Of a stretch of 55,336 nucleotides of DNA, positions 1 to 34,148 are shown one piece after another (within the stretch, counting starts at the first letter, position 1; every line of letters starts with the position of its first letter). The notes beneath the pieces were generated by a model, which ran no database searches, was not told the origin of the DNA, and saw nothing but the letters and a program-made list of their open reading frames with translations. The translations under genes were made by a program, and so were the position numbers. This DNA comes from Elusimicrobiota bacterium. GTDB lineage: Bacteria; Elusimicrobiota; Elusimicrobia; UBA1565. The stretch spans positions 1 through 55,336 of the forward strand of contig JBDREN010000230.1 of assembly GCA_043819795.1 (NCBI GenBank), read 5' to 3'.

Positions 1-1100
1 CGCGGGCGTCCAGAAGAACATGCCGCTCGCGGGATCGAAGGCGTCCGCCGCGCCGGCCGGCAGGCCGCTGAGGTCCGCGGACAAGGTCAGCCGGTTCTCC
101 GGCAGGTCCGCGTCCGCGGCCGCGACCGCGAAGCCGAGGGGCGTCTGCTCGTCGAGCGTCTTGTCCCCGATTTCGGCCAGGACCGGCGCCTTGTTCACGT
201 CGCGCACCGCGATCGCGATGGTCTCCGATACGGTCTCCAGGCCGTCGCTGAGGAAGAAGGTGGCGCTGTAGGGCGCGGCCCGGCCGTCCGCCTCGACGGG
301 CGTCCAGTCGAAGGTCCCGGCGGCCGGGTCGTAGGCCTGCGCCGCGCTGGCCGGCAGGCCGGAGAGGTCCGCGGAGAAGACGAGCGTGTTGGCCGGAAGG
401 TCGGGGTCGGCGGCCGAGAGCGTGAACGTGACCTGGGTCTCTTCGTCCACCGACTTGTCCCCGATCGAGGCCAGGGTCGGCGCGATGTTGGCCTCGTTGA
501 CCGTGATCGTGACGGTCTCCGTGTCGGAGAGGCTCGGGTCGGCGTCGTCGGTCACGGTGAAGATCGCCGTATACTCGCCCTGCCCGTCCGCCTCCGTGGG
601 CGTCCAATCGAACGTCCCGGCGGCGGGATCGAAGGCCTGCGCCGCGCCGGCCGGCAGCCCGGAGAGGTCCGCGGAGAGCGTGAGCGTGTTGGCCGGGAGG
701 TCGGGATCCGCGGCCGACAACGTGAAGGCGAGCCGTGTCTGCTCGTTCAGCGCCTTGTCCCCGATCTCGGCCAGAGTCGGCGCGATGTTGGCCTCATTGA
801 CCGTGATCGTGATGGTCTTCGAGGCGCTCAGGTTGTTCGGGTGGCCGTCCGTCTCGGTCGCGGTGAACGTGGCCGAGTACTCGCCCGGCCCGTCCCCTTC
901 GGCCGGCGTCCAACTGAACGCGCCGGTCCCCGCGTCGAAGGCGTTCGCCGCGCTGTCCGGCAGGTCGGAGAGGTCCGCGCTCAGGACCAGGACGTTGGGC
1001 GGATCGTCATCGGGGTCGGAAGCCTCGACCACGAAGCCCAAAAGGACCTGCTCGTCGGTCGTCTGGTCCGCGACCGCGATGGAGGGAGGGTCGCTCACCG
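1..1100 (-). repeat. Four ~100-aa putative Ig (He_PIG/cadherin-like) repeats inside the giant CDS, last one truncated by the window edge
   Basis: Units such as NIAPTLAEIGDK...LSAADPDLPANTL.LSADLSGLPAGAA.AFDPAAGTFDWTP. Near-identical DNA at ~470-513 and ~770-813 (300-bp period). Confidence 0.85.
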
Positions 1101-4100
1101 GCAGCACGGTCACCCGCAGCGTATCCGACGCGGAGTGCTCCGCCTTGTCCGAGGCGCTCAAGGTGACGATATAGGCGCCGTTCTTCGTATAGCCGTGGCT
1201 CGGGGTCAGGTCCGCGCCCGCCGTGGCGTCGTCGCCGAAGTCCCAGCCGAAGACCGGCGCCGGGTCCACGGTGTCCGTCACCGAGCCGGCGAAGTCCACC
1301 GGCACGTCCTCATCGACGGTGACGTCCGCTCCCGCGTCCACGCTCGGCGCCTGGAGGTCGATGTTCAGAGTCAGGCTCGACTCCGCGCTGTTGCCCAGCA
1401 GGTCCGACGCGGCGGCCTCCGCCGTCTGGCCGGCCCCTTCGGTGTCGAAGGTCTCCGAGGGCGGGCAGCTCTGCATGCCGACGGAGCCCGAGGCCGGCGC
1501 GTCGACGCATTCGTAGGAGACCGTGACCGCAGTGCCGTGCCAGCCCGCCTCGTTGGGCTCGGGCGTGAGCGTCGCGGTCACCGTGGGCTCGCTATCGTCG
1601 AGCGCGACCGCCAGGTTCTGAGCGGCCTCCTCCCTGCCGAAGGCGTCGACGGCGCGGAAGCTGATCGTATGGCTGCTCTCCCCGCTGAGGGTGAACGGCG
1701 CGGCGTAGGTCTGCTCGGGCGCCCCGTCGATGGAGTACAGGATCCGGTCGACGCCCTCTCCGATCCCGTCTTCGGCCGCCAGGAGGTCGTCCACGGCGGA
1801 GAGCGTGAAGGGCGTGGCCGAGGTCACGAAGCCGTCCGTGTTGGGGTCGCCGACGGCGATCGCGGTCCTCGGGGGCTGAATGTCGTGGACCACTTCGAAC
1901 GTCTCTCCCGTGCTCGAGGTCGTGTTCCCCACATGGTCTTCCGCCTCGATCTCCAGGCGCCACTGCCCCGCGGCCAGTTCCAGGGCCGGGAAGGTCTGGC
2001 CGGGCTGGACCGCGATCGGTCCCGCGTCGGCGTCCGGATGGCTCGCCGCGGCCTGGGTCCTGACCAGGGACGCGGAGACCGTCACGTCCGGATCCACGTC
2101 CTCCACCGAGAAGTCCACCTCGACCGTGTCTTGGTCGGCCACGAACCGGCCGCCCGATGGGGAGCTCAGCGTGATCACGGGCGCGCCGCGGTCGATCTTG
2201 ATGGCGTCGAGCGTCGTGGAGGCCGAGTTGCCGGCCTGGTCGAAGGCTTCGCCCGAGGCGCTCAGGGCCGGGCCCTCGCCGGTGACCGTCACGGGAGCGG
2301 GGCAGCCGTCGGGCGCGATGCCCGAGAGCGGGTCCGAGCACTCGAAGGTCACCGTCACGTCTTCCGAATTCCAGCCGGCGCCCGTGCCAGGGGAGCTAGA
2401 GGCGGAGATGGTCGGCGGGGTCCGGTCGATCCGGATCGGGGTGAGCTCAATCGAGGACGTGTTGCCCGCGATGTCGGTGACGCTTCCGGAGCCCGAAAGG
2501 GCGGCTCCCTCGCCGGTCACGGTCAGGGCCCCGGGGCACGCGTTCTCGGGCAAGCCGGCCCCGTCGTCGGAGCAGGCGAAGACCACCGTCACGTCCTCCC
2601 GGCTCCAGCCGTCGTAGCCCGTGGCGGGCGAACTGGAGGCCACGATCGTGGGGGCCCTGGTGTCCACGGTGAAGTCCAGGGAGGCCGATCCGGCGTTGCC
2701 CGCCCGGTCCTGGACGTCCCCCGCGGTGACCGTGGCCCCTTCGGCCATCTTGAAGACCAGGGCCCCGTCCGGCTCGGGGTTCACGTCGCCGATCCGCGAG
2801 CCCGTGTCGCCGAGCCCGAAGACGATGGTCAGGCTCCCGTCGCTCTCGGCCAGGACGTGGTAGTCGCGCGGCTGGCCGCCCAGGGACATGACGAGGCTCG
2901 CCGGGTCCGGGCCGGAGCCCGTGTCGGCGAGCGTGATCGTGAACTGAGGGCTCGAGCTGAGAGCCAGCGTGCCTCCCGCGATGTCGATCGTCACCGTCGG
3001 CGAGCTATGGTCCACGGCGAATACGCCGTAGGCGGCGTCGACGCCCGGGGTCTCCGCCGTGATGCAGCCGGAGGCTTCGTCCAGGGCTCCGACCAGCGGG
3101 TTCCATATGTACTGGCTCTCCAGGTCCGTCACGTCGCCGGTCAAGGTCCCCTCGTTGAACAGCGTTTCCGCGTCGTAGAGGCCATAGATGCTCAGGTCGG
3201 CCGGGGTCACCCCGTTGTCGGCGAGCGCCTGCGGCTCGTAGCAGAAGGTCAGGACCGATCCCGGCGGCAGCACGTCGTAGATCTGCCCCACCGGGAACAA
3301 GTCTTGGGCGTAGACGGGCGGGTACACGAGCTGTCCCAGCTCCGAGGAGGCCGAGATGGTGGAAAGGACGACCTCCCGGTCCACGATGGCGCTCACCTCC
3401 GGGTTGCCGTTGACGATGAAGGGGCTCTCCACGGTCATCCTCGCCCGGATGCTGGCCGACTGTCCGCCGCGGTCTTCCCCGTCCCAAACCGTCAGCTCCG
3501 CCAAGTACATGTCGGCCGCGGGAGGAGTGAAGCTCGCGTTGAGCGTGGTGGAGTCGTTGACGGTCATGAACTCGCCCAACGAGTTCGTCACCGACCAGCT
3601 GAAGGTCAGGGAGTCGCCGTCCGGGTCGCTGGCCGTGCCGTTCAACGCGACCAGGTCCCCGGCGAGGACGTCCTGGTCGGGGCCCGCGTACGCGACGGGC
3701 AGGGAGTTGGGGGGATCGGTGATCGTGCTCCCCAGGACCCGGTAGGGAGTCTCCGTGTGGTTGATGTTCCTGGCCTTGGCCCGGGCGTAGTACTGCGAGA
3801 GGGGCTCCAGGTCCTCGAAGATGTGCGTGATGGCCACCTCCCATTCGCTGTCCAGCACGGCCTCCGCGAAAGCCGGGTCCGTGGAGAGCTGGACGCGGTA
3901 CTCGGTCACATCGGGGTTGCCGCCGGTCGCCCACAGGACCTTGAGCTCCTGGGACAGGACGTTCTCGAAGCTGCCGGGCTTCCCTTCGAAGGCGAGCAGC
4001 CGGTGGTTTTGGTAGTCCGCGACCCACACCTGGCCCAGGTCGCTGAAGGCGATCCCCAGCGGCATATAGAGACGGTCGCCGGAGGTGACGTTCGAGGTGC

Positions 4101-7100
4101 TCGAGAAGTCCGCCTGGCCGAGCACCGAGGCGGCCGGCATGCCGTTGTAGAACGGCGGGTCGTAGACCATGACGCGATGGGCCCCGCTGTCGGAGACATA
4201 GAGCTTGCCGGAGGGGTCCAGGACGATGCCGTTCGGGCTGATGATCCCGTACTGGCCGCCCACGCCCTGATTGATATCGAAGTCCGGGCTCCCGATCACG
4301 AGGTCGGCGTTCATGCCGGTGGTGTACGGTGGGCTGAAGCGCAGCACCCTGTTGCCGTCGGCGACCCACAGCCTGTCCGAGCGGTCCACCGCGACGTAGG
4401 GCGGTCCGGACAGCCTGTCCTGGCCCAACGCGGAAGTGCCGGAGGTGAAGTCTTCCTGGCCCAGGACCACGGCCGCGTCCATCCCGGTCTGGAACGGGGG
4501 CTTGAACAGGAGCACCCGGTGGTTATGCGTGTCGGCCACCCAAAGGTTGCCCGCGCTGTCCACGGCCACGCTCTGCGGATTATCCATCCTGTCGCGCGCC
4601 ACGGCGGAGTCGGAGGCGCCGAAACCCGACTGGCCCAGGACCAGAGCGGCGTCCATGCCGTTGGTGAAGGGCGGGTCGAAGCGGACGACGCGGTTGTTGG
4701 CGGAGTCCGCGACCCATACGCTGCCGGAGGGGTCGGTGGCCACGCCGAACGGCAGGCTCAGCTTCCCGGCGGTGTTCCCGCCCGAGTTGCCGGTGAAGCC
4801 GGTCTGCCCCAGGACCACGGCCGCGAGAGGCCTGAACTCATGAGGCGGCGCGAACATGAGGATCCGGTCCGCCGAGGTGTCCGCGACCCACATGTTGCCG
4901 GAAGCGTCGAAGGCCACGTCCCGGGGCGTGGAGACCGTCGCCTGCCCCGTCCCGAAGTCGTACCGGGCGTTGAACTCGGACTGCCCCAGGACGGCGACGG
5001 CGAACTGGCCGTTCTCGAACCGGACGAGGGCCTCGGGCGTATGCACCAACGTGAAGTCCATCGCGAGCCCCGAGTAGTCGCTGGCCCCGAACGCGTTCAA
5101 GGACCTCACCCGGACGTAGTAGAACGAGTTGGGCGTGAGCCCGGCGGCGCGGACGCTGTTCCGGTCGGCCGCGTAGGTGAACACCGCCGTCGCGAAGTAG
5201 GGATTGGTCGACGCGTCCAGCTCGTAGGACTCCGCCCCGAGCACGGAGTTCCACCGGACGTCCAGCGAGGTGGGCGCGGCGCCCACGATCTCGAGCCCGT
5301 CGGGCAGGCCCGGAGCCGCGTCGTACACGTTGATCGGGAACTCGCGGGAGAGAATGTTGTTCTCCGCCTCCCCGTCGTCCGCGGTGACCGTGATCGTCAC
5401 CTGCCCCAGGCCGCCGGCCGCCGGCTCGTAGGTCAGCTCGCGCAGCTCGCCCGAGCCCGAGATCACCGGGTCGGGGACTATCCCCGGGTCGCTGGAGGCG
5501 GCGCTCAGGCTGACCGAGCCGGTCTCGAACGACCCCGGGCCCACGCCCGTGATGGTGATGGTCTTGGCCGCGCCGCCCTGCGCCACCGCCTGATCGGGGA
5601 TCTCGTCGAAGGTGGGGGGATCGTTGACCGGGTCGATGGTGATCGACACCTTGCCCGGGAAGGATTCAAGCTCCCCGTTCGACACCCGGAAGCGGAAGCT
5701 GTCCGTCCCGAAGTAGTCCGCGAGGGGCTCGTAGGTCAGCTCCGGCGCGGTCCCGCTCAGCGTCCCGCTGGAGGGCGGGTCCATGACGCTGAAGCTCGGC
5801 GCTCCCTCGGGCACGGTCCCGGTCAGTTGGACCTCGGCGGAGCCGTCCTCGGCCAAAGTCACGGACTGGGCCGAGGCGATCGGGAACTTGTCCGCGTAGC
5901 CGTAGATCTCCAGCTGGCAGTCCTGGGTGCCGGAGCCCGCCGAGAAGATCACGAAGTGCTCGTTGACCGAAACGTCCGTGGGAGACGAGTCCGGCGTCCA
6001 CTGGGCGAGGTAGGTCCCGTCCGCGTCGAACTTCTGGATGTCGTGGCGGTTGACGTCGACCACGTAGACGCTCCCGTCCGGATCCGCGGAGATGCCCGCG
6101 GTCAGGCTGAACTTGCCCGGGCCCGTGCCCGAGCCGCCCCACTTGTGGAGGAACTCGCCGGCCGGGCTGAATTTCTGGACGTCCTTCCGGCCGGAGTCGG
6201 TGGTGTAGATGAAGCCGGACGCGGAAACGGCCACCTTGTCCAGGTAGATGAACTTGCCGTTGGCCAGCTCCGAGTAGCTGGTCGCGCCCCCGAAGCTCAG
6301 CAGGTGATTGCCGTCCGCGTCGAACTTCTGCACGCGGAAGTTCCCTTGGTCCGCAACGTAGACGTTGCCGTCGGGGTCCGTTGCGATGCCCCAAGCGGAC
6401 GCGAACTGGCCGTCGGCCGAGCCCTGCGTCCCCCAGGTCGTCACGAACTCCCCGTCGCACGTATATTTCAGCACCCGCCTCACCGCCCCCCAGTTCTCCG
6501 CAGCGTACACGAAGCAGCCCGCGGCCGACTCGTGGACGGCCAGGTCCGTCACGCCCCTCATGCGGTCGCCGACCGTTCCCGTGTAGGTCCACGCCATCAG
6601 CAGGTTGCCGTCCCGGTCCACCTTGCGGATCCCGTCGTAGTTCGTCACGAACGCCGTGTTGTCCGAGGTGGCGGCCACGGCGTGCACGCCGCAGACCGCA
6701 TCCCCCTCGTGTTCCGCGAGGAAGACCGGCGGGGGGTCGGACTCCCGGATGTCCAGGTTGATGGCGGCCTCATCCGAGTCGGCCGCCCCGTCGTTGGTCA
6801 CGTAGGCGAAGCTGTCGAGCCCCACGTAGTCCGTATGGGGCGTGTAGATCAGGTCGGGAGCCGTTCCGGTGAGGATCCCGTGCTCGGGGACGGCGGTCAG
6901 GTTGAAGGTGACCGGGGCCCCGTCCGGATCGGAGCCCGTCAGCGTGATCGGCCTGGGCACGTTCATCGCCACCCGCAGGTCCTGGGACCCGGCCGTGGGG
7001 CGCTGGTTCGGGCTCACGGTGACCTGGGCCGTGTCCGGCGCGCTCTCCAGGTCCCCGTCGCTGACCACGAGCTGCACGGTGTACTCGCCCGGCTGGTCGG

Positions 7101-16100: not shown

Positions 16101-19100
16101 TGATGAGCACGGTCCCGCCCTCGGAGCCCGGGGTGACCGCGCTGATCGTCAAGGTCTCGCCCGTGTCCGGGGCGATGGAGTCGTTGGCGAGCACGTCGAC
16201 GGCGGTCGCCGCCGAATCCTCGTCGACCGTCGTCGCGTCGCCGGCGGCCGTGGGCGGGTCGTTGCCGACCTCGACGGTCATCGTGACCTCCGCGGCGGCC
16301 TCCAAAGCGCCGTCGCTGATCGTGTACGAGAAGGTCTCGGTCCCGAAGAAGTTGGCCGCGGGCTTGTACGTCACTTTCTTCCCGCCGTCCGCGATCTCGA
16401 CCGCGCCCGCCTCGGTCCCCTCATCGCAGGGGGCCGGCGTGACGGACGTGATCATCAGGATCTCGCCCACGTCCGGGGCGATGGAATCGTTGGCCAGGAC
16501 GTCCACGGTCCTGGCAGGGGAGTCCTCCGGCACCGTCTCGGCGTCGTTGTTTGCCGTGGGCGGGTCGTTGACCGGCGAGACCGTCACGCTTACGTTCGCG
16601 GTGGCGTCCGAGCCGGGCGTGCCGTCGTTCATGGTGTAGGTGAAGGAGTCCTGCCCGAAGTAGTCGGCCGCCGGCTGGTACGTGAGTCCCGCCCCTCCCT
16701 CGGTGATGAGGACCGTGCCGCCAGCGCTGCCCTGCGTGACCGCGGTGATCGTCAGGGTCTCGTCCGCGTCGGGCGCGATGGAATCGTTGGCCAGCACGTC
16801 GATCGGGGTCGCGCCCGAGTCCTCGGCCGCCGCCGCCGCGTCGTCGACCGCGGTCGGCGGGTCGTTGGCCGGAGTGACCGTTACGGTAACGGTGCCGTCC
16901 GCGTCCGAGCCCTCCGTGCCGTCGCCGAGGCCGTAGGTGAAAATGTCGGTCCCGAAGAAGTCGGGCGGCGGCTGGTAGGTGACTCCCGTCCCGCCGCCGG
17001 TGACGATGACGGCGCCTCCCTCGGTCCCCTGCGTGACGGCGGTGATCGTCAGGGCCTCGCCCAGGTCCGGGGCGATGGAGTCGTTGGCCAGGACGTCGAT
17101 CGCGGTGGCCCCGGAGTCCTCCGCCACCGTCGGCTCGTCGGGGGTCGCCGTGGGCGGATCGTTGACCGGCGTCACGGTCACGGTCACGGAGGCGGCGGCC
17201 GAGGAGCCGGCCACGCCGTCGGTGGCGACGTAGGTGAAGGTGTCGGTCCCGAAGTAGTCGGCCGCGGGCTCGAAGGTGAGCCCCGTCCCGGCGCCTGTTA
17301 TGAGCACCGCGCCGCCCGCGGAGCCCTGGCTGACCTCGATGATCGTGAGGGTCTCGTCCGGATCGGGGGCGGTCGAGTCGTTGGCCAGCACCTCGATCGC
17401 CGTGGCGCCGGCGTCCTCGGCCAGCGTGGCCTCGTCGTCGGCGGCCGTGGGCGGGTTGTTGGCCTTCACGGTGATGGTCACGGTGGCCGTATCGTTGGAG
17501 CCGGGCGTGCCGTCGTTGACGATGTAAACGAAGGAGTCGGCGCCCGAGTAGTCGGCGGGAGGCTGGTAGGTGAGCCCGGAGCCTCCGCCCGTGATGACCA
17601 CCACGCCGCCCGACGCGCCTTGGGAGACGCCGGCGATGCTCAGGGTCTCGTCAGCGTCGGGCTCGATCGTGTCGTTGGCCAAGATATCGATCGCGTTCGG
17701 CCCGCTGTTCCGCGCGACCATGGCCGAATCGTCGCCGGCCACCGGCGGGTCGTCGTGGAGCATCTCCACCGTGAGGGTGATCGAGCGCTGCTCGGAGACG
17801 CCGCCCTCCGCGTCGCGGGCCTCGAGGACCACCGTCACGGAGCCGAAGAAGTCCTGTCGCGGATGGACGTGGATCGTGTTGTCGTAGGTCTGGCCCTCGC
17901 CGCGGAGGCGGAACTCGCCGCTCGCCGGGTCCATGCCGATCGTGACGACCGGGATCCCGGGATCACCGCCGGTCGAGCCGTCCGCGGTCCCGAAGGCCGC
18001 GATGATCTCCTCCATGTTCGCGATGCGGAACTGCATCGTGTCCTTCGAGGAGTCCGAGTCCGTGGCGTAGTCCCGGAGGTCGAAGGGCCCCGGATGGAGG
18101 GCGGCGTCCTCGTCCGACGAGATGTCGGGCATCGCCCCCAGCGCCGGCGCGTCGTTGACGCCGGTGACCGTCACCTCCACGTTGGCCGTGTCCTCGTAGC
18201 CGGACGTCCCGTCGTTGATCACGTAGTTGAAGCTGTCCACGCCCGCGAAGTCGGGGGCGCTTTGGAAGCTCAGCCCGAAGCCGTCCTCGTCGATAGTGAC
18301 CGTGCCCCCATACAGCCCCTGGGTGACGGCGATGACGGTGAGCGTGTCGCCGTCCACGTCGAAGTCGTTGGCGAGGACGTCCAGCGAGACCAGCGAGTCC
18401 TCGGCCGCCACGCCGAAGTCGCCGTACGCGACCGGCACGTCGTTGACCGAGTTGATGGTGACCGTGAAGGAACGCGTGTTGGACTCCGCGCCCTCGCCGT
18501 CGCGCGCCGCCACGGTGACCGTCGCGGCGCCGAAGAAGTGCTCATAGGGGTGCACGTGGAGGGTGTTGTCGTACCGCTGTCCGTCTCCCCGGAGGGCGAA
18601 GTCGCCGCTGTTGGGGTCCTCCCCGATGGTCACGACCGGGAGGTCGGGGTTCCCGCCGGTCGAGCCGTCCGAGACGCCCAAGGCCGCGATGATATCCTCC
18701 AGGTTCGTGATGCGGAACTCCAGCGTCTCGTCCGAGGAGTCGATGTCGGTCACGAACTGTCGAAGACCGATCAGGCCCGGGTGGACGGCCGTGTCCTCGT
18801 TCAAGGTCACGTCGGGCAGGGGGGCCAGCACGGGCGCGTCGTTGGCCGCGACGACGCTGACGGCGAAGGTCTGCTGGTTGGAGACGGCGCCCTCCGGGTC
18901 CCGGGCCTCGATGAGCGCCGTGGCCGTGCCGTAGAAGTCCTTGCGCGGGTGGACGTGGACCGTGTTGTCGTAGGGCGTGCCCGGTCCGCGCGGACGGAAG
19001 GCGCCGCTGTCGGCGTCCCCTCCCAGCGTCACGACCGGCACGCCGGGGTCCGTGCCCGCCGTGCCGTCGGTGAGGCCGAAGGCCGCGATGAGGTCGTCCA

Positions 19101-22100
19101 TGTTGGCGATCCGGAACTCGAGGCTCTCCGGGGGCGAGTCCGGGTCCGAGGCGTGCTCCCGCAGGTCGTAGGGGCCCGGATGCGCGCTCGAGTCCTCGTC
19201 CACCGTGACGTCCGGATAGGACCCCAGAGCCGGCGGGTCGTTGACCTGTCCCAGGGTCACGGTGACCGTGGCCGTGGCCGTGGAGCCGAGCGTGCCGTCG
19301 TCGATCGTGTACGTGAACGTGTCGGTGCCGGCGAAGTTGAACGCTCCCTGGTAGGTGATCTTCGTGCCGTTTTCGACGATCTCCACGGTTCCGCCCCCGC
19401 TCGGATCGGAGATGTCGACGATCGTCAGCGCGTCGCCGTCGATGTCGGAGTCGTTGTTCAGCACGTCGATCGTGACCGAAGACTCCTCCTCGGTCTCGGC
19501 GGCGTCGTCCTGGGCGACCGGCAGGTCCGGCGCGGGGTCGACGAAGACGTTCACCGACCGCTGGTTGGAGAGCGCCCCTCCCGCATCGCGGGCCTCGAGG
19601 ACCACCGTCCCGGAGCCGGAGAAGTCCTTGCGGGGATGGACGCGCAGGGTGTTGTCGTAGGTCTGGCCCTCGCCCCGCAGCTGGAAGCTGGCGCTGTTGG
19701 GGTCCAGGCCGAGGGTGATGGCCGGGATGCCCGGGGTCCCGCCGGTCGAGCCGTCGGAGAGCCCGAAGACGGCGATGATCTCGGGGAGGTTCACGATCCG
19801 GAACTGCACGGTGCCGGTGGGGGAGTCCACGTCGAAGATGAAGTCGCGGAAGTCGTGGGGGCCTTCGGCGGTCTGCTGGTCCTCCGTGAGGGTGTGGTCG
19901 GGAATCTCCTTGAGCGTGGGAGCGTCGTTGACCGCGTTGACGGTCAGCGTGAAGGAGCGCTCCTCGGAGAGCCCGCCGTCCTCGTCCCGGGCCTGCACGG
20001 TCACGGTGGTCGAGCCGAAGAAATCGGCCCGCGGGTGGACGTGTATGGTGTTGTCCGCCGCGCCGACGTTGGGGCGCAGCGAGAAGAGGCCGCTGTCCCG
20101 GTCCTCGCCGATCGTCACGACCGGGATCTCGGGCGGCCCGCCGGTCGATTCGTCGGAGACCCCGAACGCGGCGATGATGTCGTCCATGTTCGTGATGCGG
20201 AACCGGAGGCCCTCGACCGCGGAGTCGACGTCCGCCGCGAACTCCCGCAGGTCCTGCTCCCCGGGGTGGACGCCGGTGTCCTCGTCGAGGGTCAAGTCCG
20301 GGATCTCCGCCAGGTACGGCGGGTCGTTGACCGAGGCGACCGTGACCGTGAAGGAGGACTGGATTGAAACGGCCCCGTCCGCGTCCCGGGCCTCCAGGAT
20401 GACCGTCACGGTCCCATGGTAGTCGTGCCGGGGGTGGACGCGGATGATGTTATCGTGCGCGGTCAGCTCGCCACGGACCGCGAACTCGCCGCTGTCCGGG
20501 TCGTCGCCGATGCTCACCACCGGGATGTTCGGGTCGCCGCCGGTCGTGCCGTCCGTCATCCCGAGCTCGGCGATCACGTCGGCCAGGTTGGCGATGCGGA
20601 ACTCCAGCGTGTCAGCCGGGGAGTCCGCGTCCGTCACGTAGGCCCTCATGTCCTCGCGCGCGGGGCGGACGTTGGAGTCCCCGTTGTCCTCGTCGATGGT
20701 CAGGTCCGGATGCGCGCCGAGCGCGGGGGGATCGTTGACGGATTTGACGGATATGGTAACGCGGCCGGCCACGTTTGATTCCCGACCTTCGTCCGCGGCT
20801 ATGTAGGTGAAGAATGCCTCGCCGTGGAAGTCCTGGGCGGGCGTGTAGGAGAAGGTCCGGCCGTCCTCGCCCAAGGTCAGCTGACCGCTCTCCGGGTCGG
20901 TATGGGACGCGACCCGCAGCTGAGCGTTCGGCGTGTCTCCGTCGGTGTCGTTGTCCACGACGTCGAAGTCGAAGGCGGTGTCCTCGTCGGTCGCGACCAG
21001 GTCGTCGACCGCCTCGGGGGCGTGCGCCACGAAGATCTGCGCCGAGTCCTGGGTCTGGTCCTGCCCGTCGCTCACGGTCAGCGTGGCGGTGTAGGTGCCC
21101 GGCGCGTCGGTGGTGAAGAAGGGGACCTTGCTTTCGGCCCCGTGAAGCACCGCCGAGCTCCCCGGGGGCTTGTCGAGGGTCCAGTTGATGGTGATCCCGT
21201 TGCCGTCGGCGTCGCCGCCGTCCCCGTCCAGGCGCACAAACGCCCCGACGTAGGTGTTCTGGTCCGGCCCCGCGTACGCTTGGGGCGCCGTGTTGCTGGC
21301 GGAGGTGTAGGTGAGGCACACCTGGGGCCAGCGGGCGGGCGCATAGCCCATATATTCCGAGGTGTAGATGCTCGCGACTTGGAAGTCGCACCCATAGGTT
21401 GAGTAGCTCCTCTCAAAGGACGGGCTCCAGAGTCGGAGCTGGACCTTGCGGTCCCCGATGACCGCGGCCACGCCGTTGGTGATGTTGACTTGAAACTGCG
21501 AAAACTTCGCGGCGTCGAACTGGCCGGCGTTGGAACGGAGCACGGGGGAGTTGAAGACGCTGGCCAAAGGCTGCAGATAGGGGAAGTCGACGATATCCAC
21601 CTGGATGGGGTGGCTGGGGCTCCATTCGTCGGAGTCGGGCCCGGTGTTCACCCGAAGGGTCGCGTTCTGCAGTTGGACGCTCTGGGGCAGGGTATAGAAA
21701 TCGAAGCCCATGAAGGCCCTGTAGTGCGTTCCGCACCAATAGCCCACATAGGCCCAATCGCCTATACTGTCGTCGATGACATAGTTCCCGCTCTTGCCGC
21801 GACCGATCATGGCGTCGCCGAAAGGTCCCAAGTCATTCGTTGTGGGGTAGGAGCAGACCGTTCCCGCGGCCCCGGCCAGCGCCTTCTCCGCGATGATCTC
21901 CACCGTGTCCAACGCCTGCCCGAACTTCTCGTCGGTCACGGTCAGCTTCAAGATGTAGGAGCCTTCCATGTCCGGGGTGAATACCGGCGTGGCGGTATTC
22001 GCCGCTTGCAGCCCGGTGCTGCTGCCGAAGGGGGTTTCCATGGTCCAACCGTAGCTTAGGCTGTGCCCGTCCGGATCGCTGGCCAACGCGGCCATGGTGA

Positions 22101-24381
22101 CGGGGGTCCCCACGTAGGTGGCCCGGTCCGGACCCGCGTCCGCGGTCGGCGGGTTGTTGGAGGGAGCGCTGTAGGTCACGTACAGGTGCGGCCGGTTGCC
22201 CGACTCGGCATTATAGATCGACGTCATCTCGAACTCGCACCCGACTTGGCTGTAGACCGCCTCCGCATCGGGGGCCCAGACCCGGAACTGGGCCCTGCCG
22301 CTTCCGTACGTCGGCCGTACGCCCGCGGTCACGTCCAGATAGTAGGGGCGGAACCCGGTGATCGGGATCTTGGCCACGTTCGATACGAGAGCGGAGGCGT
22401 CGTATACGCTCCCGCTTGCGGACAGGCCGCTGAAGCTGACCGAGTCTACCTGGGGGCTGACGGGATCGTTGGGCCCGGTCCGAACGTTCAGGACGGCGGT
22501 CTGGAGCACCATGCCCGGGGGCACGCATGAGGAGTAATCGAATCCCAGGAAGACCCGGTAGTTCGTGCCGCACCAATAGCCTATATAGGGCAAGTAATCC
22601 CCATAATTCATCTCATAGTTTCCGCTCCTGTCGCGGCCGAGCTCGGCGTCGCCGAACGGGCCGGCGTTGTTCGCGATGGAGGTGACGTCGCAGGTCCCTC
22701 CTTTATACTCCACCGATACCGACACGGAGTCGGACGCCTGGGCGAAGAACGGGTCGGTCACGGTGAGCGCGGCGGTGTAGGTGCCGGGAACGTCCGGGAT
22801 GAAGGTCGGCGTCAAGGTGTCGGCCGAGAACAGCGTGGATTGGCTGCCGCCCGGGGAGCTCAGCGTCCACCGGTAGACCATCGCGTCGCCCTCCGGGTCG
22901 CTGGCCGTTCCGCTCAATGTCACAAGGTCGGTCACCTCGGCGTGCTGGTTCAGGCCCGCGTCCGCGGTGGGGGCGTCGTTGACCGGGTTGACGGTGATAG
23001 TCACGGTGGCGGTATTGCCCGATTCGACCGCCCCGTCGGTGGCGGTGTAGGTGAAGCCGTCCTGGCCGGAGTATTCCGGGTCCGGGGTGTAGGTAAAGCT
23101 GCGCCGGTCCTCCTCCAGGCGCGCCTCGCCGTGCGCCGGCTGGGAGAACGACGCGACCCGGAGCCCCTCGTTGGGCGTGTCCACGTCCGTGTCGTTGCCG
23201 GAGACGTCGAAGGTGACCGAGCTGCCCTCGTCCACGGACACGGCGTCGTTTACGGCGATCGGCGTTTCCGTGATGAAAATGGCCACGGTGGCCGGGCTCG
23301 TGGACTCCAGCACCCCGTCGGAGACATAGTAGGTGAAGTTGTCGTCGCCCGTGGCGCCGGGGTTCGGGGTATAGGTCAAGGTCCGGCCGTCGGGGCCCAG
23401 GCCGACCTGGCCCTTGGGGGGTTGGGTGAAGGTCCCGACTCTCAGCTCCGAGTTGGGATGGTCCACATCGGTGTCGTTGATGATGACGTCCAGGGAGCCC
23501 AGGTCGAAGCGACCCACCACGAGGGCGTCGTCGGCGGCCAGCGGCGGGTCGTTGACCGGGTTGACCGTGATCGTGACGGCGGCGGGCTCTTGCGAGTCTA
23601 TGGCTCCGTCGAAGACCCGGTAGGTGAAGGCGTCCTCGCCGAAGAAGTCGGGATCGGGGGTGTAGGTGAAGGTCCGGCGGTCCGCGCCCAACGAAAGCGT
23701 CCCGTGCGCGGGCTCAGTGAACACCAGGACGCTCAGCTCCGCGTTGTCGTTGTCCCCGTCCGTGTCGTTGGACACGACGTCGAAGCCGGCAGCGTTGTCC
23801 TCGTCGGTGGAAGGGGAGTCGTCATTGGCCACCGGCCGCTTCGTGACCACGACCGTCACCACGGCGGGGTCGGACTTGTGGAGGCCGTCGGTGGCGATAT
23901 ACGTGAACGTGACGGTGCCCAGGAAGCCGGGGCCGGGGGCGTAGTAGAGGGACTCGTCGCCCGGGCCGGCGCTCAGGCTCCCGCTCTGGGGCTGGGTGAA
24001 GGACGCGACCGTCAGGCGGTCGGCGTCCACGTCGTTGGCCAGCACGGCGATGAAGAACGGCGTATCCTGGGCGGTGGCCGTGGAGTCGTCCACGGCCATG
24101 GGCGGGAGGTTCAGCATGTTGATGAAGCCCGCCGCGAGCCGCATGCCGTCGCCGTTGACGCAGGAGTTGATCTCCGCCTCGCCGATGGAGCTGATCTCGA
24201 ACACGGTGCCGGCGATGGGGCCGGTCAGGGGCAGCTGGAGGTCTCCCGCGGTGTTCACCACGTCGGGGAAGTCCCGCACTCCCCCGCCTTCGTGGACTTG
24301 TGCCGCGCCCGGCGACGCAAGCAGCAGCGCCAGAACGGGCGCCCAAATGTTCCGCTTCGCGGTGGCGATCAACTGTTTCAT
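1..24381 (-). CDS. Giant secreted multidomain surface protein/adhesin, at least 8127 aa, 3' end outside the window
   Basis: ATG at 24381 follows GGAGG. The N-terminus MKQLIATAKRNIWAPVLALLLASPGAA looks like a signal peptide. 24381 is divisible by 3, and the same frame at positions 1-50 reads ...LPAGAADAFDPASGMFFWTPA (Ig/He_PIG-like). The ORF track lists no minus-strand ORF in this frame between 1 and 24381, as expected if there is no stop. Manual translation across the region gives continuous recognisable domains. Confidence 0.95.
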   Translation of the reverse strand, partial: MKQLIATAKRNIWAPVLALLLASPGAAQVHEGGGVRDFPDVVNTAGDLQLPLTGPIAGTVFEISSIGEAEINSCVNGDGMRLAAGFINMLNLPPMAVDDSTATAQDTPFFIAVLANDVDADRLTVASFTQPQSGSLSAGPGDESLYYAPGPGFLGTVTFTYIATDGLHKSDPAVVTVVVTKRPVANDDSPSTDEDNAAGFDVVSNDTDGDNDNAELSVLVFTEPAHGTLSLGADRRTFTYTPDPDFFGEDAFTYRVFDGAIDSQEPAAVTITVNPVNDPPLAADDALVVGRFDLGSLDVIINDTDVDHPNSELRVGTFTQPPKGQVGLGPDGRTLTYTPNPGATGDDNFTYYVSDGVLESTSPATVAIFITETPIAVNDAVSVDEGSSVTFDVSGNDTDVDTPNEGLRVASFSQPAHGEARLEEDRRSFTYTPDPEYSGQDGFTYTATDGAVESGNTATVTITVNPVNDAPTADAGLNQHAEVTDLVTLSGTASDPEGDAMVYRWTLSSPGGSQSTLFSADTLTPTFIPDVPGTYTAALTVTDPFFAQASDSVSVSVEYKGGTCDVTSIANNAGPFGDAELGRDRSGNYEMNYGDYLPYIGYWCGTNYRVFLGFDYSSCVPPGMVLQTAVLNVRTGPNDPVSPQVDSVSFSGLSASGSVYDASALVSNVAKIPITGFRPYYLDVTAGVRPTYGSGRAQFRVWAPDAEAVYSQVGCEFEMTSIYNAESGNRPHLYVTYSAPSNNPPTADAGPDRATYVGTPVTMAALASDPDGHSLSYGWTMETPFGSSTGLQAANTATPVFTPDMEGSYILKLTVTDEKFGQALDTVEIIAEKALAGAAGTVCSYPTTNDLGPFGDAMIGRGKSGNYVIDDSIGDWAYVGYWCGTHYRAFMGFDFYTLPQSVQLQNATLRVNTGPDSDEWSPSHPIQVDIVDFPYLQPLASVFNSPVLRSNAGQFDAAKFSQFQVNITNGVAAVIGDRKVQLRLWSPSFERSYSTYGCDFQVASIYTSEYMGYAPARWPQVCLTYTSASNTAPQAYAGPDQNTYVGAFVRLDGDGGDADGNGITINWTLDKPPGSSAVLHGAESKVPFFTTDAPGTYTATLTVSDGQDQTQDSAQIFVAHAPEAVDDLVATDEDTAFDFDVVDNDTDGDTPNAQLRVASHTDPESGQLTLGEDGRTFSYTPAQDFHGEAFFTYIAADEGRESNVAGRVTISVKSVNDPPALGAHPDLTIDEDNGDSNVRPAREDMRAYVTDADSPADTLEFRIANLADVIAELGMTDGTTGGDPNIPVVSIGDDPDSGEFAVRGELTAHDNIIRVHPRHDYHGTVTVILEARDADGAVSIQSSFTVTVASVNDPPYLAEIPDLTLDEDTGVHPGEQDLREFAADVDSAVEGLRFRITNMDDIIAAFGVSDESTGGPPEIPVVTIGEDRDSGLFSLRPNVGAADNTIHVHPRADFFGSTTVTVQARDEDGGLSEERSFTLTVNAVNDAPTLKEIPDHTLTEDQQTAEGPHDFRDFIFDVDSPTGTVQFRIVNLPEIIAVFGLSDGSTGGTPGIPAITLGLDPNSASFQLRGEGQTYDNTLRVHPRKDFSGSGTVVLEARDAGGALSNQRSVNVFVDPAPDLPVAQDDAAETEEESSVTIDVLNNDSDIDGDALTIVDISDPSGGGTVEIVENGTKITYQGAFNFAGTDTFTYTIDDGTLGSTATATVTVTLGQVNDPPALGSYPDVTVDEDSSAHPGPYDLREHASDPDSPPESLEFRIANMDDLIAAFGLTDGTAGTDPGVPVVTLGGDADSGAFRPRGPGTPYDNTVHVHPRKDFYGTATALIEARDPEGAVSNQQTFAVSVVAANDAPVLAPLPDVTLNEDTAVHPGLIGLRQFVTDIDSSDETLEFRITNLEDIIAALGVSDGSTGGNPDLPVVTIGEDPNSGDFALRGDGQRYDNTLHVHPYEHFFGAATVTVAARDGEGAESNTRSFTVTINSVNDVPVAYGDFGVAAEDSLVSLDVLANDFDVDGDTLTVIAVTQGLYGGTVTIDEDGFGLSFQSAPDFAGVDSFNYVINDGTSGYEDTANVEVTVTGVNDAPALGAMPDISSDEDAALHPGPFDLRDYATDSDSSKDTMQFRIANMEEIIAAFGTADGSTGGDPGIPVVTIGMDPASGEFRLRGEGQTYDNTIHVHPRQDFFGSVTVVLEARDAEGGVSEQRSITLTVEMLHDDPPVAGDDSAMVARNSGPNAIDILANDTIEPDADETLSIAGVSQGASGGVVVITGGGSGLTYQPPADYSGADSFVYIVNDGTPGSNDTATVTITVKANNPPTAADDEATLAEDAGATAIEVLANDSTAPDPDETLTIIEVSQGSAGGAVLITGAGTGLTFEPAADYFGTDTFTYVATDGVAGSSAAASVTVTVTPVNDPPTATPDEPTVAEDSGATAIDVLANDSIAPDLGEALTITAVTQGTEGGAVIVTGGGTGVTYQPPPDFFGTDIFTYGLGDGTEGSDADGTVTVTVTPANDPPTAVDDAAAAAEDSGATPIDVLANDSIAPDADETLTITAVTQGSAGGTVLITEGGAGLTYQPAADYFGQDSFTYTMNDGTPGSDATANVSVTVSPVNDPPTANNDAETVPEDSPARTVDVLANDSIAPDVGEILMITSVTPAPCDEGTEAGAVEIADGGKKVTYKPAANFFGTETFSYTISDGALEAAAEVTMTVEVGNDPPTAAGDATTVDEDSAATAVDVLANDSIAPDTGETLTISAVTPGSEGGTVLITGGGTGLTYQPAADFFGTETFTYTVNDGTPGSDDTATVIATVKPLNDPPTANDDEQTIAEDSGVRAVDVLANDSDAPDAGETLKITAVTQGSQGGSVLISGGGTGLAYQPPADFSGADTFTYTINDGTPGSDVSATVTITVTPTNDAPTANDDAATVAEDSWADPIDVLANDSIAPDTGETLTITAVTQGEQGGTVAITGGGSALSYTPPGDFFGTERFSYTMNDGTPGSNATGFVTVTVTPVNDPPTASADAATVAEDPGPTAIAVLANDSTAPDTGETLSVAAVTQGSQGGTVRIAEGGTGVIYEPARDFFGTETFTYNNNDGTPGSEGTAAVTVTVTAVNDPPVAVDDTQFMPGGAPQAISFDVADNDADVDTPNASLRVVQFIPGAEGSVSLGLDFRTFTYTPNPAFDGLDTFLYKVNDGSVSSTNTATVTVALFNTPPTVSAGPDQNVAKGELVILSSSGVGDADGDPVTVTWELVSKPAGTRAILHHRVGESQAAFLADKIGTYIVRLTADDGKPLGQVSDTVEIIVGPPPTPNPGRFQNGQAADVVLLRNDFISGASSPQVPDRLVFDSGGNLWVSSVSEDRILRFDQPLTTGKQPSLVLGQESLSGTGYGCAADKFNNPVGLAFDHTGRLWVADNYNMRAVRFTPPFSNGMDADLVLGQASFTTRYLGNSADRAGRPAGLAFDSEGNLWVADPYYHRVIRFPNPSTDGQLADIVIGQTGFGQGSSGSGDSKFYNPEDVAFDADGKLYVVDRVRHRVVRFSPDPVNGFTTGMAGDMFLGQESADGVSSGTDQDSLYFPEALSFDYKGGLFVADQSNRRAVLFQPPFATGMDAASVLGKPNFTTSSTPSPTASATKDVRGVAVDRLGNVALADPYNQRILYFVRPPNQAPVADAGPDVTVRQYATATVDGSGSSDPEGYPLSYQWTLTSKPAGSALSTLTQTEVAFSTTGLSTPYANGEVVGTIGQQATGGGTSTIIRVGTQGTTFRRGFFGFDAGVLPAGADANLQSAVLKIALSVGGDESVMGPIIVDLVDFGVALGSGDDALPPLQENIGTISPEIGSGPGYRSLDVTEAVRYALSLGKVPQFRLRATNEVANMPSTYVDLVPFQPTGYSPAPVELRPLLELTLVPPTSRLQFAPDVPGLYTFQLVVNDGLDDSAPDTAVVTATPNGIPTADAQTARAIIGTAKAITLTGTDPDDDPLSFAVASQPSNGTLSGTPPAMTYTPAAEYVGDDSFTFTANDGAVDSPPGTVSINVRDLAPAPVFLTDINETYLGNRRAIAGDSDGNVYVLSDYDIRKVDALGNVVQIIGGSGSGPGQLSAARGIAVYESGDSCVLYTADLGNDRVQKLTCDGEFLTLWGGPGSADGQFNNPSDIAVDGDGNLYVLDSGNSRVQKFAPDGTHLLSFGAAGTDIAVGPSGAIYISESNSPYYGVAKYDPDGALVTRWGGYGSGHGQFTYPSTVAVDPDGNVYVGDTNRKNVQVFDADGEFLTAFGGWGTSAPGTFGYVDDLCIDANFHIYTLDGYTASHRIQVFGYPEKSPIADAQSADVTEDNPAAITLTGSVPSGPIFFATAIEPAHGTLSGDAPELTYTPEQDYAGPDSFGFRVTNGILESVPARVSITVAPVNDPPLFDKISDQGVAQNETTTQEVLVTGIAAGPENETESVGLSAESSDPGIIPHPTFTGSGETRTLRYLPAPGAIGTVTVTVSADDGQAENNTFSRTFDITIFNGPPDVPTGLTIAGIGARFFDVEWNTSPGAQSYDIEASADAGFPAGQTISYTSGDNSAKTVGLTPNTIHYVRVRAVNSFGQSAFTSAVHARTLADVPLIIRGFANGQSAADLLGQPDFSSLQFMTDATHMTSPYGLTFDRDGNLWVAEASNSRAMLFQPPLSGGLKPASAVLGKAYVNDSSCATSQRDLPTCLLSAQDVAVGTDGAVWVADPTRHRVVRFRPPFSTGMAADLLLGQTSFSGTSSGSGPSKLNGARGLAVDDAGNLWVADYYNNRVLMFRPPFETGMEASMVLGQKDFYATSGYRGADRLYYPAQIAFEKGRLWVADAGNNRMLRFTGPFANGMSADLVLGRPDFTDTSTPPPSIRLYGPWGVDEDPDTGQVIVADSGGNRILIYDPPFSNGMPATSVLGQPDFESIAEASPPTQESTGRPADVLSYGQKILVGALSDRRVVAFAGTWAGFSGVDTRKLTANWGAGDNHPGTEYLVELSADPGLAGTPLTSGWTTSTSHTFPGLARETQYYARAKARNQDLVESAYAILGSTRTRNESTPPVADAGADQNVVQHELVVLDSSGSSDADGDALALTWEFVSKPAGTRAILHHRAGETQAAFLADKRGVYEVRLTADDGRLNGSVADTVQITVGPPPIPGAGVFHKGQQAAVVLGQDDFTSSDPWVIGGADIHFAPTRVLFDGSGDLWVTDWGASRIVRYDAPLEIGDEPTLVLGQPDFDSYTRRNVDQAGIFWPHDMTLDQTGRLWLADSGHNRVIRYTPPFRNGLLPDLVLGQASFDTDGAGAGASQLSYPTDLVFDEAGNLWVADRSNNRVVRFTPDTETGELASGQSADLVLGQTDFGLNSQATDANRLRLPHGLTFDADGSLWVGDNNNARVVRFTPSPTEGFTTGMSADLVLGQEDLSALDYGAQANRMLNPQALEFDAQGSLWVLDDGSNSRLLEFRPPFRDFMDASVVLGQADFGQIMGHLTQSGLSSPHGVAVDRLGNIAVADAGNKRVMYFVRPPNQAPAADAGPDTTAAQFALATLDGSGSSDPNGQRLSYQWTIAARPAGSTVSEFIQTELALSSPSADGSGYTAGRFVDAYVSGTIGQATADSIDGYSQGMLVGSSGSRYYHAYIGFDTSDIPAGANVERAILKVFLQNGTNESLTGPVVVDLVNFGATLYTPDTANPPIMENIGTISPTLPSWDDRGYRFVDVTEAARYAIARGMTPQFRLRTANETGAGSAAFLSVEGRVLIADAEARPVLDITLKPALSRGQFRPDQPGEYTVQLVVSDGDLESAPDTAQVTVSPNQRPTAGSQDLRVAMNVPRPITLTGSDPDGAPVTFNLTAVPEHGILTGTAPDLIYTPHTDYVGLDSFAYVTNDGAADSDEAAINLDIRESDPPPVFLAEHEGDAVCGVHAVAATSDNTAFVTNYDGIRKVDRDGNLLMAWTYTGTVGDRMRGVTDLAVHESAAGCFVYAAENWGAVRRVLKYTCDGEFVTTWGTQGSADGQFASAWGIATDPDGNVYVADQGNFRVQKFDADGNHLLSFGGATSYSELANGKFIYLDKVAVSASGFIYTTDSGRKDVQKFSPAGEFLHKWGGSGTGPGKFSLTAGISADPDGSVYVVDVNRHDIQKFDADGTYLAQWTPDSSPTDVSVNEHFVIFSAGSGTQDCQLEIYGYADKFPIASAQSVTLAEDGSAEVQLTGTVPEGAPSFSVMDPPSSGTLSGTAPELTYEPLADYFGTDSFRFRVSNGELESFPGKVSITIDPVNDPPTFDEIPDQAVAQGGAAKTITITGVGPGSFETGSVSLSAASSDPGIVPDPVISGSGELRELTYEPAAGGLGQVTITVTADDGEAENNILSREFPINVYDAAPGLPDGLEIVGAAPTSLDVRWNSVLGAESYELDASTNPYFATAVFTYAADRNSVRAAGLTPNSFYYVRVRSLNAFGASDYSGLAMDFTLVHTPEALVRFENGQFAVAVLGQSEFNARYDFGTGQATVSTPRDVAFDASGNMWVADTSADRILMFAPPHEFRPLAAVVLGQTGFTGNSGGNTAGKLSLPFGVATDPSGSVWVADSANNRVVRFDPPFTNGMDAALVLGQSGFGASDSAVARDRMDNPQSVAVDSAGNLWVADTHNHRVLLFKPPFQTGMDAAVVLGQEDFTSGTSALGQDRLSGPPYVAVDRSDRLWVADGNRVLRFSPPYTTGMNADLVIGSPDFDINQGVGGQYGIISPNGIVLDPSGKLYVSDSGAHRVMVYDPPFYNGMPAASVLGQADFSSTSNVTSGDRLYMPLGIAFSDLGQVWVADYQNHRLLAFEGKPGSFENVLSQELKVLWATGGNPDVTEYRVQLSTDPAFAEAVLDSEWEVAITHIFEDLEPLSQYYARAKARNINHTETPYRVLGSTITDPPNSLPVAYAGPDQDVLAGDLVALNGTASDPDGDSLTFSWSVTNSLGEFMTVNDSTTLNASFTPPAADMYLAELTVWDGEDRGGQSASIRARMTVESPFIVNGNPEVSAIVDREVVLSTISASSELGQLVYPPVYAQDLFPVGQIYDVLPPGSVLTFCYEPQALADNGVTPADLSIYGLYDAETLFNEGTLTGDVTDLESQYIWNPLVGALDEASGCITAETPGVDAAYGVFAVDHSSPTVTIDIAGGTLALSSSPQFTITLADTGSGPDPASLVMSLGGQPRDYHVLAESDGSLTIVFGLGDTGSRIGDVNPEPDGALVFKMAEGATVTAGDVQDRAGNAGSASLDFTVDTRAPTIVASSSPATGYDGWSREDVTVVFACSDDGAGLPENACPGALTVTGEGAALSGSGSVTDIAGNTSSIELTPIRIDRTPPTISASSSPGTGAGWNSEDVTVTFECSDPLSGIAPDGCPAPVTVTGEGPALSASGEAFDQAGNSASTTLDAIKIDRGAPVITLSSPSGGRFVADQDTVEVDFSVEDVDPDVTVSASLVRTQAAASHPDADAGPIAVQPGQTFPALELAAGQWRLEIEAEDHVGNTTSSTGETFEVVHDIQPPRTAIAVGDPNTDGFVTSATPFTLSAVDDLLAAEDGIGEGVDRILYSIDGAPEQTYAAPFTLSGESSHTISFRAVDAFGREEAAQNLAVALDDSEPTVTATLTPEPNEAGWHGTAVTVSYECVDAPASGSVGMQSCPPSETFDTEGAGQTAEAAASDLLGNSAESSLTLNIDLQAPSVDAGADVTVDEDVPVDFAGSVTDTVDPAPVFGWDFGDDATAGADLTPSHGYTKNGAYIVTLSASDKAEHSASDTLRVTVLPVSDPPSIAVADQTTDEQVLLGFVVEASDPDDDPPNVLVLSADLSDLPDSAANAFDAGTGAFSWTPAEGDGPGEYSATFTATETDGHPNNLSASKTITITVNEANIAPTLAEIGDKALNEQTRLAFTLSAADPDLPANTLTLSADLSGLPAGAAQAFDPAAGTFDWTPTEADGQGEYTAIFTVTDDADPSLSDTETVTITVNEANIAPTLASIGDKSVDEETQVTFTLSAADPDLPANTLVFSADLSGLPASAAQAYDPAAGTFDWTPVEADGRAAPYSATFFLSDGLETVSETIAIAVRDVNKAPVLAEIGDKTLDEQTPLGFAVAAADADLPENRLTLSADLSGLPAGAADAFDPASGMFFWTPA
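3718..14784 (-). repeat. Two diverged tandem copies (~5.5 kb each) of a multi-domain module: PKD-NHL-split PKD/DNRLRE-Big9-NHL-Big9-cadherin-FN3-NHL-FN3
   Basis: Same domain order in 14784-9271 and 9270-3718. AILHHR.GE.QAAFLADK is encoded at 14591 and 9071 (5520 bp apart). VAVDRLGN...YFVRPPNQAP.ADAGPD occurs at ~13420 and ~7861. Confidence 0.9.
15076..17757 (-). repeat. Nine tandem ~99-aa Big_9/cadherin-like Ca-binding repeats
   Basis: NDPPTA.DD...V.ED.....IDVLANDSIAPD.GETLTI.AVTQG units. Starts at about 17460, 17163, 16866, 16569, 16263, 15966, 15669 and 15372, plus a first unit at ~17757. Period is mostly 297 bp. Confidence 0.9.
17758..20736 (-). repeat. Six copies of a ~133-aa extended cadherin-like repeat, interspersed with two Big_9 units
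   Basis: Units start at 20736, 20328, 19929, 19242, 18843 and 18156 and are mostly 399 bp. Shared FRI.N...IIA.FG.SDGSTGG.P.IPVVTIG.D..SG.F.LRG....YDNT..VHPR.DF.G. Confidence 0.9.
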
Positions 24382-26207: not shown

Positions 26208-26282
26208 AACACTCTCCCGGACAACGACCGCTCCGCCCATCCCGCGGCGGGCCGCGCGTTGGTCCATAAGTGAAATCTAATT

Positions 26283-31934: not shown

Positions 31935-32013
31935 GGGGTTTGCGGATACCGTAGGGAATATTATCAATAAAGCAACGGGTTGGCCATTTCCGGACTCGCC
32001 GGAGGCATCTCCT

Positions 32014-34098: not shown

Positions 34099-34148
34099 GA
34101 CCCCACGGAACGCGGGGGTTAGCACGGATTGATGCGGAGGGAAAGCCG

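Follow-up and report, generated by a model that had tools for sequence, protein, structure and literature searches.

The window analysed here, 55,336 nucleotides long, is the whole of contig C230 of an Elusimicrobiota MAG (G000; further contigs of this genome are given below as C plus a number). Its left part is occupied by a giant open reading frame on the minus strand (1..24381), which runs from an ATG at 24381 to base 1 and comprises 8,127 codons without a stop, its 3' end being cut by the contig end. The other five frames of the same stretch contain 15, 196, 339, 228, and 47 stops, and at the base composition of the gene, a stop-free frame of such length has a chance probability of ~1e-74. 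GC content at the three codon positions is 0.63, 0.50, and 0.92. A GGAGG sequence is located 5 nt upstream of the ATG; inspection by eye placed this ribosome-binding site, the start codon, and signal-peptide-like residues 1-27 at 24301..24391 (minus strand). The N terminus, also read by eye, consists of a basic n-region, a 10-residue h-region, and G-A-A followed by Q, with a modest hydropathy of 1.37 over 19 residues. Use of an alternative in-frame GTG at 24567 would add a leader that is not protein-like. The giant ORF is a real gene of a giant multidomain protein. The visible 8,127 residues have a computed mass of 847 kDa, are rich in acidic residues (D+E 13.6%, K+R 4.6%), and contain neither an RTX nonapeptide nor a segment of transmembrane strength. 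A sequence-only reading had proposed a hidden minus-strand gene of at least 8127 codons for a protein of ~0.8 MDa or more, lacking RTX nonapeptides in its visible part. The unbroken frame with its GGAGG, the count of zero in-frame stops, the calculated mass, and the absence of RTX motifs all bear this out. The gene was hidden in that the frame was missing from the ORF listing, but the only reason is that no stop codon is reached before the contig ends. Giant genes are, moreover, common in this genome.

The gene contains no N and no exact internal repeat of at least 30 nt. The best internal DNA identity is 79.5% over 88 nt (73-75% over long stretches), and identity to any other contig of the genome is at most 76%. 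Repeat collapse is therefore unlikely. In two public read runs, 6-9% of sampled words were present, and assembly yielded short low-depth contigs only. The MAG has a size of 4.99 Mb in 241 contigs and is 90.3% complete; a 16S rRNA was not found in the assembly. It harbors 10 frames of at least 5,000 codons and 40 of at least 2,000 codons (10% of its DNA). Since very large proteins, although poorly characterized, are also frequent in the phylum (bioRxiv 10.1101/2023.11.21.568195; PMC11573180), the size of the giant is by itself unsurprising. The gene taken alone is a compositional outlier in the genome. A foreign origin of the contig was considered and rejected: by tetranucleotide distance, the part of the contig outside the gene ranks 16th of 152, and the cyclophilin of the contig shares 76-82% identity with those of genomes of the same family.

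Upstream of the giant gene, two ORFs on the same strand were found. The first gene of this putative operon (25668..26267) has 199 codons, a signal-like start, an Ala-rich composition, and no Pfam match. It is followed by a 424-codon ORF (24378..25652), which also has a signal-like start, then an FN3/Ig piece like those of the paralogues and a low-complexity tail; its stop overlaps the ATG of the giant gene. No terminator-like site was detected between these ORFs and the giant gene. A promoter-like element of ~110 nt (26285..26389, minus strand) is located two genes upstream of the giant gene and not directly before it. No Rfam match was obtained in the window. A HEAT-repeat/cNMP-binding protein (28737-32018, minus strand), a second cNMP-binding protein (39174-40952, plus strand), and a caspase-domain protein (48998-50980, plus strand) are, as far as seen, unrelated to the giant.

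The promoter-like element comprises an AT-rich tract and the repeat TGTCR-N6-TGTCM (26309-26329), which runs into a TTGAC -35-like box; a TA-rich -10-like box follows 17 nt on. The strict motif occurs in 46 copies in the genome, with none in five local shuffles or in a reversed control, and was found in only 2 of 40 relatives, once in each. At 13 of the 46 sites a strict TAnnnT is present at 16-18 nt, versus 0-5 at shifted offsets. By a rough rule, a signal-peptide-like start is encoded by 31 of the 37 assignable motif-led genes, compared to 635 of 2,983 genes genome-wide. The motif-led genes include that of the barrel on C3, described below, and the giants on C156 and C52. Transcription of the giant gene from the promoter-like element is inferred. 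Further copies in the window (32124-32144 and 34047-34067, plus strand) precede an exported TSP_3/MopE-repeat protein (32210-33814) and an exported protein with RCC1, TSP_3, and FIMAH domains (34068-37271), respectively. We rejected a reading of the motif as a Pho box, because no strict copy is present on the contig of the sole PBP_like_2 match.

In the visible giant protein, we counted ~52 Ig-like domains and ten predicted binding heads, of which four are DNRLRE-like domains and six are propellers. The Ig-like domains comprise 21 Big_9, six extended cadherin-like, nine PKD (seven intact, two split), four FN3, four He_PIG-like, and eight others. The domain order described in the sequence-only reading was confirmed with refined counts. 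Profile matches revealed four Big_9/cadherin-like domains behind the signal-peptide-like start (residues 91-466; 22984..24111; all positions are on the minus strand), followed by the series PKD, DNRLRE-like 1, PKD, DNRLRE-like 2, PKD (residues 467-1119; 21025..22983), in which both DNRLRE-like domains score below the NF033679 cut-off. Then come six extended cadherin-like repeats of ~133 aa, interspersed with three Big_9 domains (residues 1120-2207; 17761..21024), and ten tandem Big_9 domains with a D+E content of 15% (residues 2208-3198; 14788..17760). Two copies of a composite module follow (copy 1, residues 3199-5037, 9271..14787; copy 2, residues 5038-6890, 3712..9270). Both have the order PKD, six-blade propeller, PKD with an inserted DNRLRE-like domain, Big_9, NHL propeller, Big_9, cadherin-like domain, FN3, and FN3 with an inserted propeller; the DNRLRE domain of copy 2 exceeds the NF033679 cut-off (E 1.4e-11). 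The next region (residues 6891-7762; 1096..3711) contains a PKD domain, a Cys-pair domain without family, Ig-like DxTPP/DxAGN units with Cys pairs, an OmpL47-type domain, and a further PKD domain. The visible part ends in He_PIG-like repeats (1..1095), three whole and the last cut, which are ~60% identical to repeats of a protein encoded on C121. The Cys-pair domain without a family match (139 residues, 6985-7123; window 3013-3429, minus strand) has counterparts on C50 and C105 at ~40% identity.

Among 61 genomes, the extended cadherin repeat was found only in G000, apart from one weak match. Similarly, when orthologues were sought in 60 relatives, three module queries matched G000 alone, bar one weak match. 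Of the best 150 library matches to the extended repeat, 23 span the profile; three of these are weak, one is from G000, and three others have the full insert. The library proteins P0008, P0011, and P0025 carry the full extended repeat, and their ends resemble surface proteins of Verrucomicrobiota and Planctomycetota. The idea that the repeat represents a new fold was rejected, as its language-model features match cadherin/Big_9 at 0.97.

Four of the ten heads are insertions inside PKD or FN3 domains. When the intact-PKD profile was aligned, positions 2-52 matched residues 3653-3706 and positions 58-91 matched residues 3899-3932, with a DNRLRE-like domain in between. In the second split PKD, the profile halves are at residues 5506-5555 and 5757-5789, again with a DNRLRE-like domain between them, and a paralogue on C50 has the same PKD without insert. 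Two propellers each interrupt an FN3 domain shortly behind its start, and the rest of the FN3 domain comes after the propeller. The NHL family (PF01436) scores over its cut-off in the giant, and in four propellers six repeats are spaced 53-63 aa apart. Of the four DNRLRE-like copies, one exceeds the NF033679 cut-off of 34 bits (44.7 bits) and the other three reach 16.5-20.1 bits. Residues 4586-5785 were modeled with AlphaFold2 (8 rows; pLDDT 76.8, pTM 0.50); two propellers, FN3, and PKD were locally confident and the DNRLRE-like domain was weaker. A Foldseek search with this 1,200-residue model returned only propeller-type matches, namely six-bladed NHL and Pizza6, at a target TM of ~0.8. The domain map and the four true domain insertions support the earlier proposal of a long Ig/cadherin stalk with heads spaced along its length, and the inserted heads are predicted, from the sequence tests, to be side branches off this stalk.

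Where the giant ends is not visible in the assembly. It had been suggested to extend the frame into the neighboring window, but there is no such window, since the stretch is the whole contig. The frame is still open at the contig edge, the first 400 nt of C230 share no 21-mer with the rest of the assembly, and no other contig end starts with the last repeats of the giant; the C terminus is thus absent from the assembly. Contigs that start inside tail-bearing genes (C3, C62, C2, C235, C188, C50, C96, and C121) were also considered, and none is joinable to C230.

Sister genes offer a view of the probable end. Eleven other ORFs of the genome share the rare modules of the giant (extended cadherin, DNRLRE-like, Cys-pair Ig, He_PIG-like). 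Six of them have an intact end, four are truncated where their contigs stop, and the remaining one is a fragment of one of the six. All six end in the same 104-residue tail, which terminates in KAGKFAVVR or nearly so. The ORF on C121, whose repeats resemble the last repeats of the giant, passes straight into this tail. Among 10 intact smaller ORFs with only the common propeller, Big_9, or FN3 modules, the tail was present in one. It is likely that the giant itself carries a KAGKFAVVR-type tail beyond the contig end. Some sister genes show signs of assembly errors or decay: a frameshift at C121:33097-33227, an in-frame stop at C143:346-350, and, where contig C50 ends (C50:18370-18604), a near-identical duplication of 235 nt. 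Matching protein sequence suggests that the C105 end and C143 start, C160:3-5663 and C38:4908-25481, and C47 and C46 are joinable halves of other giants.

The tail resembles that of type IX secretion system (T9SS) type A cargo. All three copies tested pass the TIGR04183 cut-off, as do 25 of 26 genome matches. Within the order, all 61 of the 61 genomes have TIGR04183 tails, as against none of 14 control genomes. The tail is always the last domain of its protein, and 16 of 18 aligned copies have a Lys six residues before the end. In known type A tails, a Lys near the C terminus is almost invariant; these tails bind PorV loops inside the SprA pore, and their extraction needs energy (PMC10994853). 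The tail was modeled as a beta-sandwich of eight short strands (pLDDT 79), compared to seven strands in type A tails. In Foldseek, Vpr ranked first, FlgD 9th, and PorZ 38th, indicating a generic Ig sandwich that is not specific to T9SS tails; a wide fold search likewise gave generic Ig domains, and its top 50 matches included no T9SS tail. With our own profiles, we counted 40 tail-ended ORFs in the genome. In many smaller modular exported proteins (C164, C206, C225, C166, C140, C151, C98, C55, and window 34068-37271), a similar short tail takes the place of the T9SS-like one. Pfam assigns it to FIMAH in the window copy, and many such genes are led by the promoter-like motif. This FIMAH-like tail is possibly a second sorting or anchoring domain.

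The KAGKFAVVR subtype of the T9SS-like tail is present in 16 copies in the genome, of which only the one on C3 adjoins a PorV-like gene. The product of this gene (G000:C3:700-1683) is the candidate cognate barrel. In relatives, tail and barrel gene are paired one to one: 21 of the 24 closest tail copies have an orthologue of the C3 barrel gene directly downstream, and the other three are within ~200 nt of a contig end; these counts come from kin genomes and are not independent. In one relative (G006:C82), the tail belongs to a complete frame of 9,039 codons and is accompanied by the barrel gene. Most simply, as predicted from adjacency, the C3 barrel would be the cognate carrier that the orphan cargoes have in common. 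There is a precedent in Flavobacterium johnsoniae, in which three orphan type B cargoes share the carrier Fjoh_1677 (PMC12618676). Altogether, our own profile retrieved 29 PorV-like genes, 18 of which directly follow a tail-bearing gene, and four of six barrel candidates scanned pass the NF033709 cut-off. No Cys is present in 14 of 17 copies of the C3-type barrel.

A candidate pore is also encoded. A 1,857-aa protein encoded on C134 shows three collinear SprA matches (TIGR04189, E 8e-42) and scores 142.6 bits against a family cut-off of 200; PF14349 (SprA_N, Pfam) did not match it. Within the order, 58 of 61 genomes encode such a protein; the family cut-off is exceeded in none of the 61. When a profile of 20 copies was used to search 177,635 PDB sequences, only F. 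johnsoniae SprA was matched (E 7e-20). Of the best 80 relatives of this protein, 74 are titled Elusimicrobia, Elusimicrobiota, or Endomicrobium and six are titled 'bacterium'. By its sequence, the protein is a clear homologue of SprA and is predicted to be a divergent SprA-like pore. The SprA-like gene (G000:C134, L005:6155-15523) is divergent from lptF/lptG, and beyond these lies a gene for a weakly PorV-like barrel. GldM and GldN were found in none of 31 genomes, and GldL and the PorU sortase (Peptidase_C25) were not found in the one genome searched for them, G000, which is 90% complete; these searches had no positive control signal. For GldK there were weak matches only, which also appeared in control genomes. 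The export route, described as unexplained in the sequence-only reading, now has a likely answer: intact sister genes carry a T9SS type A-like tail at their ends, and SprA-like and PorV-like proteins are encoded elsewhere in the genome.

Our main reading, to which we assign a probability of roughly 0.58, is that the giant is a real protein, likely a surface adhesin, which leaves the cytoplasm via Sec and then the cell via a divergent type IX-like SprA pore by virtue of a C-terminal tag suggested by the sister genes. After cleavage of the signal peptide, the giant would fold in the periplasm, and its KAGKFAVVR-type tail would be captured in the SprA-like pore by the C3 PorV-like barrel, which would be common to 16 cargoes. 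The protein would then be displayed as an acidic rod that is stiffened by calcium and is either fixed to the barrel, tail down, or set free. Ig-like domains are 3.5-4.5 nm long each; with 52 of them, the visible part would measure ~180-230 nm. The DNRLRE-like and propeller heads may bind polysaccharides or cell surfaces, and a shared promoter would provide for co-expression with other exported proteins. Calcium stiffening, adhesion, and ligand binding are predicted from what is known of the domain families. The giant likely works like a T9SS type A cargo. Formal membership in the T9SS is withheld, because any tail of its own would lie beyond the contig and the searches detected neither motor nor ring nor sortase.

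Alternatively, the missing end may be an effector or enzyme domain without a tail, and the giant may leave the cell with a tagged downstream partner or by another route. The genome does encode untagged giants, namely those on C15 (10,012 codons), C2 (7,541), C38 (6,858), and C160 (3,373). Those on C15 and C160 precede a tail-bearing giant gene, and those on C2 and C38 end, by eye, in RHS-like sequence. None of the untagged giants, however, scored with the rare modules of the giant at E 1e-6, whereas all six intact ORFs that did are tagged. We consider an untagged end unlikely.

It is similarly unlikely that the giant is exported as proposed above but serves as a released matrix or feeding scaffold for polymer capture or prey attachment, with propellers that might be catalytic. 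This alternative would fit the nature of the DNRLRE domains, which are found in polysaccharide lyases and share ~30% identity with CBM96, a binder of alginate (PMC9971899). It would also fit Omnitrophota, whose giant proteins have been associated with adhesion to prey and digestion of the wall (bioRxiv 10.1101/2023.11.21.568195), and the finding that PorU, the sortase that anchors type A cargo, was not detected in the genome. Against it, the visible 8,127 residues gave no credible match over a whole domain that passed the cut-off of a catalytic family, and the propeller matches are NHL-type.

A further alternative takes the tail as an ordinary FlgD-like Ig domain without export role, the giant as a periplasmic or envelope scaffold, and the SprA-like pore as a device for other cargo. 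The fold searches, in which FlgD ranked ahead of PorZ among generic Ig/FN3 matches, and the lack of a detected motor or ring would agree with this. The tail, however, is invariably terminal, and all 21 testable close copies in relatives adjoin one PorV-like subfamily. Moreover, the width of the periplasm is far below 200 nm, so that a rod of ~200 nm would by far exceed it. We regard this scaffold explanation as improbable. Finally, an assembly artefact or a silent pseudogene is very improbable: the MAG is fragmented and the sister genes on C121, C143, and C50 have the defects described above, but the giant gene has 8,127 codons without stop, a GC3 of 0.92, no exact 30-nt repeat, and at most 76% identity to other contigs.

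The preferred reading, export of the giant through the SprA-like pore, can be placed in a wider proposal, which is tentative: Elusimicrobiota may possess a type IX-like system without a motor, and this lineage may have made a platform out of one cargo-carrier pair. Sixteen mosaic giant surface proteins, built by inserting heads into stalk domains, would share a tail subtype and a PorV-like carrier, and a single promoter element specific to the lineage would switch cargoes and carrier jointly. As a repeat adhesin, the giant is of a familiar kind, and Elusimicrobiota were already known to be rich in huge proteins. The exit route of these proteins is undescribed in the literature searched. If an SprA-like pore exports a giant of 0.85 MDa or more in the absence of the Gld motor, type IX-style export would operate beyond Bacteroidota, driven by a different energy source or by none. 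The shared carrier and the shared promoter would be handles on cargo-carrier specificity and regulation. We found no report of a T9SS in Elusimicrobiota in the main texts of the openly accessible papers searched. The terms 'type IX' and 'T9SS' are absent from the main texts of bioRxiv 10.1101/2023.11.21.568195 and PMC11573180, and PMC12204202 and PMC7031533 contain T9SS and Elusimicrobiota in unrelated mentions.

Compared with Bacteroidota T9SS type A cargo (SprA, PorV; PDB 6h3i/6h3j; PMC10994853), the giant has a putative Sec-type start, and its sister genes have a TIGR04183-type tail, modeled as a beta-sandwich, in which a Lys lies close to the end. SprA-like and PorV-family proteins are likewise encoded in the genome. 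In contrast to the Bacteroidota system, the host is an Elusimicrobiota bacterium, the SprA-like protein is ~550 aa shorter and below the family cut-off, and GldL, GldM, GldN, and PorU were not found in the genome, which has 29 PorV-like barrels, 18 of them beside a cargo gene. While SprF of F. johnsoniae is disulfide-linked to GldK (PMC12635249), the C3-type barrel mostly lacks Cys. The type B cargoes with their PorP/SprF shuttles (PMC12618676) offer a second comparison. Cargo and carrier genes are paired in both cases, and orphan cargoes would share one carrier. Unlike in type B, the tail studied here scores as type A, the carrier is PorV/PorQ-like, and as many as 16 cargoes would share it. 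Omnitrophota giants, according to bioRxiv 10.1101/2023.11.21.568195 and PMC11573180, have transmembrane regions, SecA-like and peptidase domains, and adjacent type II-like loci, none of which was seen in the giant described here.

With respect to the heads, the DNRLRE domain/CBM96 family (NF033679; PDB 7VBO; PMC9971899) is represented in the giant by four DNRLRE-like domains, one of them over the cut-off. Two of the four are located inside PKD domains, and none had a sequence match in the PDB. In CBM96, a basic groove serves to bind alginate. In overall architecture, the giant is comparable to the RTX adhesins LapA, SiiE, and MpIBP, which have a very long acidic Ig/cadherin-like extender and ligand-binding domains. 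RTX adhesins, which use type I secretion, have their nonapeptides near the C terminus, lack a Sec signal, and depend on a cognate HlyBD-TolC. The giant differs from them in that its visible part contains no RTX repeat, its start resembles a Sec signal, and the genome encodes no HlyD over the cut-off. Furthermore, its heads are spread along the rod, four of them as insertions, instead of being confined to the tip. The novel features are the 16-to-1 expansion of cargoes over their predicted carrier, the inserted heads, and the genome-specific promoter-like element.
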